DNA from: Octopus vulgaris | Taxonomy: Eukaryota | Direction: 5' to 3' | Length of the DNA stretch: 64,000 nucleotides | Assembly (NCBI GenBank): GCA_951406725.2 | Contig: OX597828.1 | Coordinates: forward strand, 62,310,001 to 62,374,000 | In this document: one piece after another, positions 12,914 through 28,669 of the stretch | Layout of the letters: every line of letters begins with the position of its first letter | Position numbering within the stretch: position 1 is the stretch's first letter | Made by a program: the position numbers and the translations under genes | Notes under the pieces: model-generated | What the model was told of the DNA's origin: nothing | What the model saw: only the letters and a program-made list of their open reading frames with translations | Database searches by the model: none

Positions 12914-15900
12914 TCATAGGATCATGTTCAAAGTGGCTTCGTCATTCATACGTGCCATCCTTGCTACATTTACCCATCTTTTTTTGAAACAGTCGCTAGA
13001 CAAAACTTGCCTCTCTACTCTCACCTTCTTTTTCAAGTGATACTTGAAAAAGTTGATGAGAGATCGACCAGAGAGGAAAGTGTTTGTCTCTAATCCTTTC
13101 AGACGCGTCCACCAGATACATTCTTTCGCCATAGCTACAAGTATTATAAAAATAGCTCTTCCTTCCCGTTTGAAGGAAGGAGGCGTGACGATATTGACGA
13201 TAGACTCGGCTGATAAACCGACTCGTCCCACACGTGACTGCAGTCGTTCGACATAAGCCCACAGGTCGGAAATGGTTGGACACTGCACGAGTGCGTGCAT
13301 AACGGTTTCGTCGCTCTGACCGCATCTCGGGCAGGTCGGCCTCGTGTTTCTCGAACCATGTCTATAGAACGGGTAGCGCTTCTCGATAGCACTGCCAGGC
13401 AAGGGATCTCTGGAAATTGTCCATAGGTCCCGGCCTGAAAGTCGTCTTGAATAGGCGGGTCAAGTATTCCTCGTCGACGCCCAGGTTCGCCCCGAGATCG
13501 TCGTCGTACATCCCCTCCACTAATCCCCTATAAAATGCTTTCGTGGTAATGCAACTGCTCAAGTTCGACCCAGGACGGCAGAGTTGCTGGAGAGCAACGC
13601 GACACTCGCGGTGCCATTCGCCCTTCCTCGACCTCTTTTTGATCCACGATTGCAGCTCGGTCATGGACACAAGTTGCAGGGAAGCGCGCCGCACAAACAG
13701 CGACCACACCTGCTCACCGTCGTCGACGTAGAGCTGGAGATGTCGCAGTCTCAGCGCGTGTCTGCGCATCATCAACCACGGCATGCCCAGCCCTCCTTTC
13801 AGCGGGTGTTGTCAGCAAATGGATCGCCTGACCATCGGAACGTTTCCTTTCCACAAGAAGCGGAAGAGAATGCGTTCCAGTTTGGTGACGGTGGGGTCGG
13901 GACAAGGCACGACGGTCAGGTGGTAGTTAATGACGGATGCAATGTACGCGTTCGCCACCTCCGCCCGACCTTTTAGGAACAGCTTCCTCTCGGCCCATTG
14001 CCTGCAGAGAGTGGCCGCCCTACTCGTCATCTCGTCCCAGTTCTTCTCCGTTTGCAGGTCTGGACCGAACCAGACCCCGAGCAATTTGACCGGCCCGTCC
14101 GTCCAGCGTCCCACTACTGAGGCGCTGGTGGACGGCATGGGCTTGCTTCTCCAGGCGCCCAACCGCAAGCCCACCGACTTTTCTCGGTTGATTTTTGCTC
14201 CTGTCACCGCTTCGTAGTCTTGCAGTGTCTCGCCAACTAGTTCGATGTGCTCGTGGCTAGACACTATGACGGTGACGTCGTTCGCGTATGCGGACACGCT
14301 CGTCCCGCACCCCAGTTCTCGCGGCATGCCCCTCAGCGTCGCCAGCTTCCGCAGTAGTGGCTCGAGAGTCAATACGTACAGAAGCGACGAGAGGGGGCAT
14401 CCCTGACGGACCGAACGTGCAATGTCAAAAGGCAGCCATCCAGCCGCGGAATATGGGATTGAAGCCGGCCGCCATGAGGACAGCCTCCAAGTATCGATGG
14501 TCTACCCTATCGAAAGCTTTGGATTGATCCAAATTGATCAGCGCCCCACTCATGCCAGGTTCCTTAGCTACCCTGTCTATGATGTAGCGCATCAGATTGA
14601 GGATGTCATGGATGATCCGGACCGGCACGGCGCAAGTTTGCGCCTTATCGACCAGTTTCTCGATGACAAGCGCCAACCTCTTGGCTAACACTTTGGCCAA
14701 AATTTTCAAGTCTGCATTGAGCAGAGTAATGGGCCTAAAGTTATCTATAATGTCCCCCTTGTTTGGATCTTCCATTAGCAGCGTTACGGTTCCTCGGCTC
14801 ACAAAACCGGGTATGCTTCCGTTCTGCTGCTAGTTGCAGTACACCGCTGCTAAGACGTCTCCAAACAAGTCCGGCATACAATTGTAAAGTTCGTAGGGCA
14901 GACCATCCAAACCCGGCGATTTGTCCCTTGAGCATCCTGCCATCGCATCCCTCACTTCCGCCGCCGTGATGGCACCTTCGCAGCACTCCGCCTCTCTTGT
15001 CGAGAGTCGTGGCAGGCTGTGTAGGTAGTCACTGAAGTCCAACCTGCGTTCTCGCTCTCCACTCCTCCCGAACAGTCGGGCAAAATGTTGCTGAAACGCT
15101 TCTCACCACTTTTCTCCGCCACCCGGGCCGCTCTCTCAGCTCCAACACTTTCCATCTTTAGAGTACGCATCCTAGCCCTGACAGCACACCCTTCGTATTT
15201 GGCGTTGAAGTGTTGGTCGAGGCCCAACCTCGCCGCCAAAACGACGGATGTGATGCCGCTTCTAATTGACTCTTCTAGCTTCTTAACTAGCTCACCCTAT
15301 ACTCTGTTTCTATCTATGACTAGTGCTTTGCTGTACCTAATCGCTTCTGCTTTTACTGCTCTCTTGAGGGCAAACCACCGTTTGTTGTTGACGATGGCTG
15401 CTGTCAAAGCCCTCTTTACTAGTGTGCTAATTCGGTTTCTGAAAACCTGTCTCGACGGGAAAGCTGCGTTCAGTTTCCAGTAACCAGGACCCTGCCTATG
15501 TGCCTTATCTAAGTCTAACATACACGTCACAAGTTTGTGATCTGTGTAGCTGTCCTGCATAGTATCCTATCTAGATACGATCTCGACGACCCAATGCGGT
15601 TGCTCCATGTCCACGTTGGCACATTTGGGTGGTCGAGTCGGTACCTGTCAGACAGTTGAAAGCGTCTGAGCAGGTCTCTGAGGCATTTACATCCCCGTCT
15701 ATTTTCGTCTCTCCCCAAGTAGTCTAGATGCGTGTCCAAGGTAGCTGCCGTCGACATCCAGGACAACCAGTCTACCCTCTGGGTCTATGAATATCGTCTT
15801 TACTTCGAGATCTAGACTCTTGCGAAAAAGTACCACCGTGCACCTACCGCCCATCCTCGGTAGACAGGGAGAAAAATTAATGTTAAACCGTCCGCCAAAC

Positions 15901-18450: not shown

Positions 18451-20816
18451 TGGTACGTACAGTAAACTTCAAATTATATTCCTTAGATATGTTCATCGAG
18501 TCATTTCTGAATTAACTCAGAGTGTGGACGTTCATGTTGTAGATGGAAAATTGCTAAACTGTCGCCTCTCTGCAGCCCGAAACAATGGAATGTTATTCAT
18601 TGTGGGTGTCTAGGATGAAAAGTTTCAGGAAATCGCTCGAATAATGGATCATAATCACTTTTGAGCCGATAAGAACCGTTGTGATAAAAGAGCAACTTCC
18701 TGGTTCTTATCTTAATCTTTTTCGAATTCTGGGGTTTCCAGAAGAGAGATTTAAATAAAGATGGAGAAATTTCTTTGTATTGAATTGTTTGAGCCTGCGG
18801 AGCCGTTTGTTTTGTTATACTATTGAACCAATGAACAGCTTCGTTGTGATTGGTTCAATGCGAAGCGCTTTTGATCGTAACATAATCTGTAAAGAATCGA
18901 CACAAAAGAGTCAACGTTGAAACCTTTACAAGGATTAGAAGGATAAGAATAGTTTATCTGAAGGATTACCATTGGAAAAAGAGTCAAATGGATGTTCTTT
19001 CCGTGATGAGAAAACTCTGTCAACGGCAGATCTCCCCACCTTTTGTAATCAAGAGATACAGAAATGTGTGTGGTGTCCATCATACCTTTCTTAAGGGCAT
19101 TCGCAGGTAAAAATGAAATAATAGTTACGACTGTATATCAAACCCGAGTAGTAAACCCATCAACGACTCATCATGAACTCTTCATCATTTCCCTTTGAAG
19201 GAGTAAAACATCAATGCATTTTCTCTAACAAAACCCGACCACAAACTAGGATTACGTGGAGTTCAACACTCTCCTAAAGAAAATGATTACATTTACTGGG
19301 TTTTATTCAATTGTGGAGTTTGTTTGTTTGTTTGTTTTGTACCTCCTGAAAGCAAACCCGGCTCGCGTGTTTGCTTCGTCACACAATCAGAGAAAACGAA
19401 TCCAGCGCCATTGTCTAACCGTAATCATCAAAACACGTTTTCGTGTCATCAGGGTCAAGGGTCATTCACAACCCATCAATAACCAGCAGAATAGGTTCCA
19501 CCTAAATCTTTATGTTCGACAGATGGGTGGACGAGTGGATGGGCTGGTGGATGGGCGGGTGGATGGATGTTCACATATTTATTATCACACTCGCTGTTGT
19601 TGCTTAAACCTCGGTCGTCTCTGATCGAACCAACACATGAACAAAAGCGTTCCAGTCGTGACCATCCTGTTTTTTATTCTGTGTCTCTGGGACTACATCA
19701 TCCGATGTTTCCTACCTATTTGATGACGGTAAGGATGCGATTTTTAGCCTGGTTTGGCAGCTGTTTTTAGTAAACCGCATGACCATGCAGAAGTTCCGAG
19801 AAGGAAAGGCCGGGATAACAAAACCAGGGACAAAGAGAAGCCAAGGCAAACCAGTGCAATGGTGGTGTGAAGCAGGATTAGTAATATCATTGCGTGATAG
19901 CAGAGTGTCGTTGATGTGTAACAGATTGCTCAGTGAAGCGCGATCAGACGGGATCACCTTCTTGACACATATCAACCGAGTCTTTCTCGACACTGTATCG
20001 TGTGACACGAGACACGAAACAGCGCGTCCGGATCAAATTCTGTCTTAATCACACACATACACACAACAACAACAGCAACAGAAACAACAACAACAGCAAA
20101 TATCAAGTTGTTAATAACCCATGTTTTGAAAATACACCCACCTACATACATACCTACGTATATATACTTATGTATATGTATGCATATATACATATGTACT
20201 TGCATACATACACACATGTATACCTACATATATAAGTACGTACATACATATGTACGTGTGTGTGCGCGTGTATATATATATATTTCCTATATTCTACCAA
20301 CACCACTATCAACTCTTACCTCTACATTGGATTTTCTTTACCCTTGGATACTTACCATTGGCTGCACCTCTCTTTCACGGATCAAAGTGACTTTGTTATT
20401 GATGTGAAATCCTTAAAAAATATACCATGACGTCTATACATTTCTAACTTTGAACTCTCAACCTTGAACTTGTTCGCATAAACTGTCCCGTTCGTTTTAT
20501 TTTTATTTTCTCATATATTATCCCTTTTTTTTACATTCATTTCATACTTTCCACATTTTCCTGCAGTTTTGTCCTCTTTTCCGTCGTTTCTTCCTTCTCT
20601 GGATGTCCATACTCTGTTTCCTCTGCCTGCACCCCCTTTTTTTGCCTCCCCCTCTCTCTGCTTCCCTTCTTTCTTTCCTTTTTCCATTTGCCCCATCTTC
20701 TCCGCCTTTATTTTCTGCCCCTACCGCTTTTTTTATCTAGTTTTTTCATGCGATTGTTTTTTTGTTGTTTTTTTTCGAACGTTTGATTTTTCCCCCTTTT
20801 TTTCGCTATCCCATCA

Positions 20817-23323
20817 TGCCTGATTATAAATCCTACCTCCTCACTATCCACCACCGTTTGAAAGATCACCTCCGCCCTCTCCCCCTAAACTGTTTTCAGC
20901 CGCCCATTAATCTCTCTCTACTTCTTTTTAAAAAAACCCGCTTCTCTAGCCATGTCTCTTTCCTAAGCCGCTGCCTACATCACCGACTCATCCCTAAAGG
21001 TTTCCGCCTCCACTTCCACCCTGCTCTCCACTCACATTCTTCCATCTTACCCATACTCCGCACCACATCTTACCGCCTTATACAGGCCACCATTCGCTCC
21101 AATCTCTCTAAACTACATACCATCAACCGCCTTCTTCCTCCTGCTTTCCTCACGTTTTTCTCCTCTCTGCCGCCTTTCTATGCTCCAAACACGCTACGCT
21201 TCATTATCCATTTGAATCACCTCTTCCATCAATTTCTTTCCGATACCAAACTTCGTAAACTCCAATCACTCCTCAATTCCACCACACCCGACGCCACCAC
21301 CCCAACTCCTCCACTACCCTTCTCCCCTCCTGATAGGTTCCATCCACCCACACCTAACCCCACTGCCCCTCCTGATAAGCTCCATCCACCTACACCTAAC
21401 CCTACTGCCCCTCCCAACCACCCCACACACACCTCCCCAATCCCTCCCCCTCAGACCTCCACGAGCCCTACCACCCCTCCTACTTCTATTCCACCCACCC
21501 CTTCTCCACTTCCGTCTGTTGTTACCATTCCCCCCGATCTTCCCCTCTCTGCGGCGGAACGCTCCGTCCTTAGTAGGGGTCTGCGTTTCATCCCCCTCAC
21601 TCCATCCTGTAAGGAATTCCAGACGCGAGTTGATGTCCACAGCTTTGTGCGCCGCGTCCGGTTGGGTGCGCATTTCCGCGACTCACCACCCATATCCAAC
21701 GAAGAGAACTGATTCACTGACCTGGGCCGCCGACCATCCCCGTGGACGCCTGCCCCCGGCCAGTTCCTAGCAGTGGATCTTTTCGCGGGCGTATGTCAGC
21801 GTGCATTGGAGCGGTTCAACTTCTCCAGGCGCCAACGCCGCCTCAACATCTCCCCGGCCGAGCTCTCGGCTCTTCGTTCCCTCCAACGGCGCGCTGACAT
21901 TATCATCAAACCGGCTGACAAGGGTGGAGCTGTAGTGGTGTGGCGCGCGGACCTCTGCAGGGCCGAGGCTCTCCGCCAACTCAATGACACCTCCTTCTAC
22001 TCCCCTCTGTCCTCTAACCCCACACGTAGCTACCAACAGACGGTATCCTCTACTGTCCGCGACCTCATCTCGTCCTCCCGTCTCCCCCACACCGCATCCA
22101 ACCTAATTGTGCGAACCCCACGTACCCCCACCATTTACTTCCTCCCCAAAATCCACAAACCCAACAACCCTGGCCGCCCCATCGTCTCCGCCTGTAACTG
22201 CCCCACGGAGCTCATCTCTAAATACCTCGACCGTGTCCTTGCCCCCCTAGTGGCGTCTCTTCCCTCCCACATCCACGATACCAACCATGCTCTCTGGCGT
22301 TTCAACTCTTTCTCCTTTCCTCCCGGCTCCTCCAAAATCCTTTTTACTATGGACATTCAGAGCCTCTATACCGTTATCCCTCACCACGAAGGACTGCAGG
22401 CACTTCAACACTTTCTTGACCTCCGCTCCAACCCTGAACCTGACACCTCCACACTCATTCGTCTGGCCGAACTTGTCTTTACTCTTAACTGCTTCTCGTT
22501 CACGGGCGAGTTCTACCATCAGATCTCGGGAGTGGCCATGGGAACGCGAATGGGCCCCAACTATGCGAACCTGTTCGTTGGCTATGTTGAGGCCCAAATA
22601 TTCTCTAATTTCACTGGTCCCACTCCTGAACTATATGGTCGTTACATTGACGACATTATCGGTGCTACCTCACTCTCCCGTGAACATCTAGATTCCTTCC
22701 TCTCTTTCGTCCAATCTTTCCATCAAGCCCTCCACTTCACTTCCACTATCTCCAACACCTCTGTCTCCTTCCTCGACATTTCGGTTAGCATTCTTCACTC
22801 CACTCTTACCACCTCCATTCACTACAAACACACAGACTCACACTCATACCTCAACTTCTCTTCCTCCCACCCAGAACACACCAAGCTTTCCATCCCCTAT
22901 TCCCAATTCCTCCGTCTACGTAGGCTCTGTAGTGACGACCATGACTTTGAGACTCAGTCTCAACGTATGGCTCACCACTTCATCCTACGTGGATACCCCC
23001 TCACCACTATCCACACCGCCCTTGCCAGAGCACGTTCCGTGGACCGTGTATCTGCTCTCTCTCCCCGAACCCGCCCTGTAGTCTCCCGCCTCCATTTTCC
23101 CCTCACTTACCACCCCACGACCCTACCTCTCCAACGCACCATTCTTCGAGCTTTCCGTCATCTCCAGTCCGACCCGTCCACTTCACACCTCTCCCCCCTC
23201 CCCCCTCCCCCTCCCCCTCCCCTCCCTCCTCTTCCCTCATCTCCTCTCTCTACACTACACCATACGACTTTACACATCACATCATATATACATACACACG
23301 TCCAGACCTCTCATACGCACTAA
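20817..23323 (+). pseudogene. PLE polyprotein (N-terminal domain and RT), one in-frame TGA at 21710-21712, C-terminally deleted
   Basis: ORFs 20762-21712 and 21773-23323 share a frame. Motifs FLSRC..LIPKG, VLSRGLRFIP, IKPADKGGAVVV, YFLPKIHK..PGRPIVS, MDIQSLYTVI, QISGVAMGT, RYIDDI, FLD, SIPYSQFLRLRRLCS. Homology ends in a poly-C/CT tract near 23190. Confidence 0.9.
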
Positions 23324-23551
23324 TACTCTCTCATACACACACACACACTCTTCTCATACATACACACACACTCTTATGTTGGAGCGAGGTCATTTAACCC
23401 TATTATCAACCCTATTATCTCCCCTAATTTCGCTCTTGCGTCTCACGTTTGATCTTTGACTTCTGGCCGAAATCAGATCGCCATGTTGATTCGCTAGCCT
23501 CTGCACGCATATTTTTTTTCTCTCCTTCTTTCTGTGTTTTTTCTCTGTGTA

Positions 23552-23589
23552 TCTTTCTGTTGAAGAGCGTAGGCTCGAAACGTTAAAGA
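23552..23589 (+). ncRNA. Minimal type I hammerhead ribozyme (PLE-type, variant core CUGUUGA)
   Basis: TCTTT-CTGTTGA-A-GAGC gtag GCTC-GAAA-CG-TT-AAAGA; palindromic ACGT replaces stem III. Confidence 0.65.
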
Positions 23590-23716
23590 CTTGTTTTATT
23601 TATATTTCCTGAGCGCCATACTAATACAATTGTTTGTTTGTATTCCACCTGCCTTCGTCTTTTGTTTATTTCCGTAAACCTGCCTTCGTCTTTTGTCTAT
23701 TTTCATAAAGCTTCCC

Positions 23717-23795
<79 letters not shown>

Positions 23796-23903
23796 GGATA
23801 CAGATCGTGTATCAATAGCTATCTTGATGGCGGTGGCCTCATGGAGCTGACCATGGCAGCGATTATTCCTATATCTATAAGAATGCCATATTAATATGGC
23901 GAT

Positions 23904-24015
<112 letters not shown>

Positions 24016-27483: not shown

Positions 27484-27556
<73 letters not shown>

Positions 27557-27757
27557 TACGTATATATATATATATATATATATATATAACAAAAGGGACA
27601 TTAGCCATTTGAATGTGGCTAGGGACAGGGCAGGGCGGTGGGGGTGTTACTGATGCATTTAGCCCCAGGCGATCATCAACGTCACCAGATAGGCTGACAC
27701 CATCACGGTGTCCTCTATCCTGCAAAGGGAGATCATTCCCCGAAGAAGCGGATGCCA

Positions 27758-27802
27758 CATACGGACCCAGGTTTCGAGGTGTTTGCCTCTCGTCAACGTA
27801 TG
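27758..27802 (-). ncRNA. Type I hammerhead ribozyme, copy 1
   Basis: Exact reverse complement of 27961-28005. Confidence 0.85.
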
Positions 27803-27960
27803 GTAGGCACCGCCCCTCGACGAACGACTCTCTGTGCAGGATATTTATATATAGATTTTCACGTAAATACATTTACTGATTTCGAAAATCTGTTCGACAG
27901 CAATAATAATTCTCTAAACGAGATATAGACAGCAGTCGTTCGTCGAGGGGCGGTGCCTAC

Positions 27961-28005
27961 CATACGTTGACGAGAGGCAAACACCTCGAAACCTGGGTCC
28001 GTATG
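27961..28005 (+). ncRNA. Type I hammerhead ribozyme, copy 2 (predicted cut after C27999)
   Basis: Stem I CATACG/CGTATG; core TTGACGA; stem II GAGG-caaaca-CCTC; GAAA; stem III ACC-tg-GGT; GUC triplet. Confidence 0.87.
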
Positions 28006-28317
28006 TGGCATCCGCTTCTTCGGGGAATGATCTCCCTTTGCAGGATAGAGGACACCGTGATGGTGTCAGCCTATCTGGTGACGTTGATGATAGCCTGGGG
28101 CTAAATGCATCAGTAACACCCCCACCGCCCTGCCCTGTCCCTAGCCACATTCAAATGGCTAATGTCCCTTTTGTTATAGAGCAGTTACTGTCTATATCTC
28201 GTTTAGAGAATTATTATTGCTGTCGAACAGATTTTCGAAATCAGTAAATGTATTTACGTGAAAATCTATATATAAATATCCTGCACAGAGAGTCGTTCGT
28301 CGAGGGGCGGTGCCTAC

Positions 28318-28362
28318 CATACGTTGACGAGAGGCAAACACCTCGAAACCTGGGTCCGTATG
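28318..28362 (+). ncRNA. Type I hammerhead ribozyme, copy 3 (predicted cut after C28356)
   Basis: Identical to copy 2. Confidence 0.87.
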
Positions 28363-28669
28363 TGGCATCCGCTTCTTCGGGGAATGATCTCCCTTTGCAG
28401 GATAGAGGACACCGTGATGGTGTCAGCCTATCTGGTGACGTTGATGATCGCCTGGGGCTAATGTCCCTTTTGTTATGGAGCAGTTACTGTCTATATCTCG
28501 TTTAGAGAATTATTATTGCTATATATATATATATATACATATATACATACACACACATATGTTTAAACATTTATTTCTACATAAATGCATTGATATAATA
28601 TATATATGAGTGTGTGTGTGTGTATTTATACATACATATATTTGTATGTATGCGTGTATATACATATAC

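Follow-up and report, generated by a model that had tools for sequence, protein, structure and literature searches.

The 357-nt hammerhead-bearing repeat identified in a 64,000-nt stretch of the Octopus vulgaris genome (assembly GCA_951406725.2, contig OX597828.1, positions 62,310,001 to 62,374,000, hereafter the window) is best explained, with a probability of roughly two in three, as a dispersed non-autonomous retrozyme that would borrow the reverse transcriptase (RT) and GIY-YIG endonuclease of Penelope-like elements (PLEs), probably via a circular RNA template. The locus is one young copy of a dispersed repeat, made up of about 1.6 head-to-tail units and a mirror-image partial copy. The element would be a member of the animal non-LTR retrozymes (non-autonomous PLEs), a class that was itself already known. 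Membership of a young element in the metazoan non-LTR retrozymes had been proposed in the initial annotation of this DNA, and is supported by the absence of a conserved reading frame, the dispersal of the copies, their 0.4% divergence and the compensatory changes in stem III. The insertion footprint, which that annotation had missed, was the most informative feature and points to the mobilising machinery.

Unit coordinates (u) were counted from u1 = 28000, the first base 3' of the first predicted cut. The element occupies 27585-28520, precisely the limits set in the initial annotation, and is composed of an inverted arm, one joining base, a direct arm, a deletion and 65 nt, with (TA)n on both sides. 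Its features are as follows.

27522..27584, no strand: (TA)n target microsatellite, left flank
27585..27932, minus strand: inverted 5'-truncated arm, 348 nt, 1 mismatch
27758..27802, minus strand: third hammerhead motif, within the inverted arm
27934..28461, plus strand: direct arm of period 357, from u292 via one full unit to u105
27935..28031, plus strand: extension of hammerhead helix I by a long stem with interruptions, z = -3.92, showing compensatory change from family to family
27961..28005, plus strand: type I hammerhead motif 1, predicted cut after 27999
28000..28356, plus strand: sole complete hammerhead-to-hammerhead monomer, 357 nt, 47% GC
28179..28221, plus strand: 43-nt tail sequence in an internal position, u180-u222, bounded by the family's two fixed 3' ends
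28318..28362, plus strand: hammerhead motif 2, predicted cut after 28356
28456..28520, plus strand: end of the direct arm, u158-u222, following a 58-nt deletion at a 6-nt microhomology
28521..28540, no strand: (TA)n target microsatellite, right flank

The inverted copy with its third hammerhead, absent from the initial annotation, runs from u189 round to u179 and terminates at the short, tail-less 3' end, and the terminal tail (28478-28520) sits within the end of the direct arm. The period of 357 described earlier was confirmed, but the arrangement is not a plain tandem, since the inverted arm and the deletion are present; the periodic stretch extends over only 528 nt (1.48 units) and hence contains one complete monomer, and Tandem Repeats Finder reported no 357-period array in the window. 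As to the near-identity of the copies that had been noted, the direct copies were found to differ at one of 171 aligned positions. Divergence is 0.42% among the window's three copies and 0.27% to the closest locus elsewhere, and on this measure the window copy is a young insertion.

The description of the unit as non-coding agreed with our searches: tblastn with two PLE proteins found no match in the window unit or among 34 monomers, and no reading frame was conserved among 25 monomers of family A, as we call the window's family. Read as a circle, the window monomer constitutes one 118-codon frame, from 28248 round to 28247 with the stop immediately before the ATG, which was matched by 2 of 5000 shuffles. 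As a conserved ORF this frame was rejected, being kept in two of the 25 monomers (L001 and L002) and disrupted by frameshifting unit lengths, and it is probably due to chance.

The 45-nt hammerhead motif occurs exactly at 27961-28005 and 28318-28362 on the plus strand, where the GUC triplets end at 27999 and 28356 and thereby delimit a 357-nt unit, 28000-28356, the predicted RNA monomer or circle; the motif, the cut positions and the monomer length given in the initial annotation all coincide with these coordinates. Motif 1 comprises a 6-bp helix I, a U3·G8 core, G10.1-C11.1, a 4-bp helix II and a self-complementary helix III. Three helices around the core, an open loop I and an NUH site are all present, and the complete type I topology claimed earlier was accordingly upheld for the fold but not for the consensus core, as U3 and G8 stand in place of the consensus pair C3-G8 (as given in PMC3088659) and stem III is only 1-3 bp long in the window hammerheads. 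The suggested comparison with Rfam gave a similarly divided outcome: Hammerhead_1 (RF00163) matched all three copies with an E-value of 5e-4, yet the 26.7 bits lay under the gathering score of 34, which nothing in the Rfam scan of the window reached. Matches to Rfam microRNAs near 27500 were discarded as TA-repeat noise. The extended stem around the motif (z = -3.92) was equalled in stability by none of 200 shuffles.

Since the core has a U-G wobble at the usual C-G pair, the predicted self-cleavage of the window hammerhead is doubtful. By analogy, a U3·G8 hammerhead would likely have reduced activity; when a different hammerhead was scanned by mutation, low activity was recorded for all mutants of the 3-8 motif except the C-G to G-C swap (PMC9901934). 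Cleavage in vitro was reported for one of nine predicted dimers of frog retrozymes (bioRxiv 10.64898/2026.07.22.740005, in the part drawn on here), and the minimal hammerheads of PLEs are described as cleaving poorly (PMC4209133), while U3-A8 and U10.1·U11.1 appear among the natural variants listed in section 8 of PMC3088659. A direct test of a U3·G8 hammerhead was not found in the literature searched. Failure of the strict core consensus lowers the case for an active ribozyme, not that for an element working like a retrozyme.

Copy number in the source genome (2.80 Gb), recommended earlier as a check, proved to be that of a dispersed multicopy family, the hammerhead motif being matched exactly 187 times in family A and 354 times in a sister family, B; a shared tail motif gave 943 exact matches and a shared 3'-half motif 1278, and the reversed-pattern controls gave zero for each motif search. 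Family-A copies are scattered over many contigs as insertions of a few units. The family search returned 2046 candidates, of which the best-scoring 40 were scored, and a second set consisted of the best 40 of 1375; being best-scoring candidates, the loci are biased to young, long copies. Family B was about 74% identical to family A. Other hammerhead variants were carried by additional subfamilies, whose identity to A or B was about 80-89%, and subfamily unit lengths were 355-360 nt. All 30 bins were covered in three large public runs bearing three different coded organism labels. The summed contig depth of these runs over u90-u222 (28090-28220) was about 10-50 times that at the hammerhead, depth not being equivalent to copy number; the 3' halves shared by many subfamilies, together with 5' truncation, may explain the excess, to which an abundant relative not seen here could also contribute.

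Among 129 distinct copies, the stem III insert was self-complementary in 126, with seven different sequences, although part of the family-B tally (34 copies with one insert) was predetermined by the pattern used to retrieve that family, in which stem III and a portion of helix I were specified. Positions 3 and 8 were U·G in 94 of the 129 contexts, U-A in 25, C-G in 8 and otherwise in 2, so that 127 retain a pair or a wobble there. Dimer-type cleavage has been linked to a stem III that is short and palindromic (PMC4209133, in the part used here), which by analogy suggests the same for this repeat. Conservation and covariation of the hammerhead among genomic copies, which had been proposed as a touchstone, were assessed on 49 of 93 distinct hammerhead contexts, where 95.9% of cells pair (slid controls, 32-51%) and two-sided change occurred at 5 of 26 pairs, located in the outer stem, the extended helix I and stem III; the number of independent events behind these counts is small. 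In the same 49 sequences no pair of helices I and II changed on both sides, and the compensatory change in stem III was between subfamilies. We take the pairing and the retained palindrome as arguments for selection on the ribozyme. In a midpoint-rooted tree of 58 rows, one per locus and near-full units only, U3-A8 with U10.1·U11.1 was basal within family A, and U3·G8 marked a single derived clade, to which the window copy belongs (30 rows, support 99/94). Where the basal family-A copies have U·U, the canonical G10.1-C11.1 is found in the window's subfamily. On this tree, U3·G8 is derived within family A from U3-A8; it is also predominant in family B.

The insertion footprint was determined on 44 distinct family-A loci (60 fetched, 16 overlapping ones dropped). 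An inverted arm was present in 34 of them, and the arm-arm junction was within -7 to +1 nt in 31 of these 34. As many as 70 of the 78 outer 3' ends lay at u179 or u222, one end being at u179 and the other at u222 in 26 of the 44 loci, and 63 of the 70 fixed ends had a TA-rich flank. Target duplications of 10-12 bp were seen at two loci outside pure TA (L026 and L030) when the 26 two-ended loci were examined. Most family-A arms were shorter than 700 nt, the longest being 1268 nt. Family B behaved alike: an inverted arm was present in 10 of 22 loci, and of 32 ends 31 fell at a pair of sites separated by 46 nt, the equivalents of those in family A. PLE insertions are described as partial tandems that have an inverted copy truncated at its 5' side and, at one end, a tail of 30-40 bp, and (TA)n as a preferred target of Naiad PLEs, in the parts of Craig et al. 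(PMC8557442) on which we relied. The present insertions likewise have an inverted 5'-truncated copy, a single-ended tail, here of 43 nt, and (TA)n as target. Because the fixed ends, the inverted truncated arm, the one-end tail and the TA target match the PLE pattern, we infer that the insertions were probably made by PLE machinery. The 43-nt tail itself was rejected as a special hairpin, as it folds at -6.9 kcal/mol but ranks only 220th of 357 windows.

Both fixed ends, u179 and u222, are located mid-monomer, and therefore a linear cleaved monomer yields a cDNA of at most 222 nt. The cut site was crossed by 64 of 83 arms, and at least twice by 23, and no indel was found within 5 nt of the cut-site junction in 91 instances. 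The 78 5' ends were uniform over the unit (KS p = 0.36), and 3 nt or less separated one of them from the cut, where 1.5 would be expected. A linear cleaved monomer as template was excluded by this read-through together with the uniform 5' ends. At 37 subfamily-diagnostic sites (heterozygosity 35%), comparisons within the same insertion were discordant in 10 of 1174 cases within an arm and in 22 of 1514 between arms, against a background of 1.4-1.5%, so that both arms of an insertion appear to derive from one subfamily. Judged from these sequences, the template would be either a circle or an uncleaved multimer. Locus-private variants (7 shared versus 124 single-unit) were uninformative on rolling-circle copying, and the median divergence within a locus, 1.3%, was about that to the nearest locus, 1.4%. 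In public runs, 19 of 24 contained the stretch or part of it, none being recorded as RNA. Four runs of guessed RNA status covered all 30 bins and gave unit-length contigs of 359-390 nt and a joint going back 357; since assembled contigs show neither ends nor strand and tandem DNA makes an identical joint, we do not count these as evidence. The deepest such contig matched none of the fetched loci (at best 7 of 11 and 5 of 12 diagnostic letters).

In the route that we propose, a copy longer than one unit would be transcribed, and two hammerheads would pair by their self-complementary stem III and then cut, probably slowly because the core is U3·G8. The monomer would be ligated into a circle. A PLE enzyme would then nick the (TA)n, and the two target ends would prime cDNA at u179 and u222, 43 nt apart, each cDNA going round the circle for a random length. 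The 5' ends of the two cDNAs would join, mostly blunt or via a few common bases, and the outcome would be an inverted-plus-tandem insertion with the tail on one end.

The most serious competitor is a non-autonomous PLE copied from uncleaved linear multimers, in which no circle is formed and the youngest hammerheads are weak or vestigial. It would fit the derived U3·G8 that marks the window's clade (30 rows, 99/94) and the low activity of core single mutants of another hammerhead (PMC9901934), and seamless read-through is expected from it just as from a circle; moreover, arms of 3.5 units (L004) and, in a related subfamily, at least 5.5 units (L231) are possible sources, and L006, the sole one of 28 testable loci with three discordant diagnostic sites in one arm, is seemingly a mosaic. 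Nevertheless, each round truncates the 5' side (most arms being under 700 nt), and multimers should erode unless they are regenerated, and unit length differs by subfamily (355-360 nt) yet the diagnostic sites agree within an insertion. Since truncation should erode multimers and unit-length variants are uniform within insertions, a circular template is favoured over an uncleaved multimer by about 3 to 1. Vestigial hammerheads also sit poorly with the pairing or wobble pairing of 3-8 in 127 of 129 copies, with the palindromic stem III in 126 of 129 and with the canonical G10.1-C11.1 of the window's subfamily where basal family-A copies have U·U. Overall, we consider uncleaved multimers an unlikely source, while taking them seriously.

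Considerably less probable is that the unit is a mere terminal repeat (pLTR) of an ordinary autonomous PLE, the locus then being a truncated partial tandem. Such an origin would account for the PLE footprint, and hammerheads are normal in pLTRs (according to the part of PMC4209133 used here), but the unit closes on itself, from the tail back to its own hammerhead, for up to 3.5 units in family A. In addition to the lack of tblastn matches to the unit and the 34 monomers, the two PLE proteins matched 3 of 105 family loci, none contiguously with an arm, and none of 60 further, partly overlapping loci. At the family loci examined, no RT + GIY-YIG ORF stood between repeats. The reading as a terminal repeat only is thereby, as far as sequence comparison goes, largely refuted, and the unit would not simply be a known pLTR stub. 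Least credible of all is a satellite, or another repeat multiplied at the DNA level through recombination or by rolling-circle transposition, that carries a hammerhead-like motif by chance. The Rfam score below gathering would suit it, but the copies are dispersed on many contigs with few units each, fixed 3' ends are combined with random 5' ends and target duplications, and the stem III changes preserve the palindrome across subfamilies; because of the truncation polarity and the covariation, this reading was refuted.

The preferred reading, a retrozyme mobilised by PLE enzymes, requires such enzymes, and the genome holds two young, ORF-intact RT + GIY-YIG PLE families that end in (TA)n and have minimal hammerheads of their own. 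In a 781-aa family, RVT_1 was scored at E 1.2e-6, just under its cut-off, and GIY-YIG over its own; the minimal hammerhead of this family is of the U3-A8 type, and its tail measures about 42 nt. The second family has open frames of 1115-1214 aa and is represented in the window by one broken copy. A CxxxxCxxC motif precedes GIY-YIG in the translations of both families and of related copies, which by the account in PMC8557442 would be Neptune/Nematis-like. The DNA of the two families showed no significant similarity to the unit (21 of 200 shuffles were as good), and the tail-to-tail resemblance was weak (equalled in 10 of 1000 shuffles for family A and 142 of 1000 for family B). An autonomous partner was encountered neither in the GIY-YIG search (best 150 of 6136 candidates scored, 30 fetched), at eight loci of the 781-aa family or in the window PLE family, nor at 39 loci chosen by the tail motif or 60 by 3'-half motifs.

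A proposal that animal retrozymes are non-autonomous PLE derivatives was put forward recently (Li, Clavereau and Pollet, 2026, bioRxiv 10.64898/2026.07.22.740005), and mobilisation by PLEs from circular RNA, as we propose here, has been suggested for the animal non-LTR retrozymes. Like the animal non-LTR retrozymes as characterised in PMC7229834, the repeat has a non-coding unit within 150-450 nt and a GC content below 50%, and type I hammerheads with canonical helix sizes and a weak helix III, at least two in succession; the values found were 357 nt, 47% GC and two consecutive plus-strand motifs. It differs from them in its U3·G8 core and in forming, instead of long arrays, dispersed few-unit insertions that have one arm inverted and 3' ends fixed at two sites. 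For the frog families, 21 TE matches were reported to be PLEs (in the part of bioRxiv 10.64898/2026.07.22.740005 considered), whereas no homologous pLTR parent was found here. With Neptune-type EN+ PLEs, as presented in PMC8557442, the element shares the partial tandem with an inverted 5'-truncated copy, the one-end tail and the (TA)n target, and with PLEs in the account of PMC4209133 a hammerhead that lies upstream of the 3' end and has a palindromic helix III; the U3-A8 core variant is also reported there in schistosome PLEs. Differences from PLEs as described in these sources are the lack of an RT/endonuclease ORF, a tail of 43 nt versus 30-40, a 6-bp helix I and 4-bp helix II instead of the minimal form, and a unit that loops back on itself. 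The MRC1-type non-autonomous elements of Chlamys (PMC8557442, as far as drawn on) are likewise insertions composed of multiple head-to-tail copies, as well as PLE derivatives, but they generally resemble the autonomous family at the 3' end, where no homologous end was found here, and their clade is given there as without canonical hammerheads, in contrast to the hammerhead present in our repeat. No description of this family was found in the literature searched, although the supplementary lists of key papers may include related elements. The main text of Cervera and de la Pena (2020; PMC7229834) has no mention of inverted, octopus, cephalopod or squid, the octopus hammerhead-ribozyme literature yielded no title on such elements among the papers listed, and an octopus repeat-annotation paper (PMC13282606) does not mention ribozymes or retrozymes.

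Arguments for a link between retrozymes and PLEs have so far relied on the hammerheads that both possess, on their co-occurrence and on trees of pLTRs (PMC7229834 and bioRxiv 10.64898/2026.07.22.740005, in the parts used), and a full PLE footprint on a non-coding unit at dozens of young loci provides direct genomic evidence for it. Two fixed priming sites with read-through of the cut site make a circular-template model of PLE retrotransposition testable with a 357-nt substrate, and the C-G, U-A and U·G cores form a natural set for how much hammerhead activity a retrozyme needs. We tentatively raise a more far-reaching idea, on balance doubtful: the three cores may constitute a natural allelic series on a mobile circle, with selection tuning cleavage down and both arms primed on one circle. 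The wobble would have been gained while G10.1-C11.1 was regained in the young clade, so that circles last until they are copied. If true, the tail and the inverted copy of PLEs at large would be accounted for by priming twice on one circle.

Several further repeats were observed in the course of this work. The broken PLE copy of the window, at 20741-23720 (plus strand), belongs to a very abundant young family with 13,344 candidates, among which the 150 scored showed protein identity of 97% or above; at about 23530-23720, the 3' end of the copy has a minimal hammerhead, read by eye best as C3-G8 with an A6-to-U change, and a (TA)n terminus. A separate hammerhead repeat family with units of 360-362 nt occurs in the window at 23792-23915 (a fragment, 78%), at L168:1738-2290 and at L169-L182; it has a U3-A8 core, a 4-nt palindromic loop III like that of the 781-aa PLE, inverted arms, flanks of TA and a pair of fixed ends with a spacing of 59 nt, and has only a 14-nt tail stretch in common with family A (E 0.17). 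LINE-type RT ORF fragments were recognised by eye from the translation at 12914-15483 on the minus strand. A family-B piece repeated four times at a spacing of about 1.38 kb with a LINE RT fragment (L112-L115; G000:C1, about 94.322-94.326 Mb) is a local duplication and not a retrozyme array. The longest insertion seen, with seven motif copies, two of them inverted, was that of a subfamily about 80% identical to family A (L226-L232; G000:C1, about 20.002-20.005 Mb), the core of which is fully canonical, with C3-G8, G10.1-C11.1 and a 4-nt palindromic loop III.
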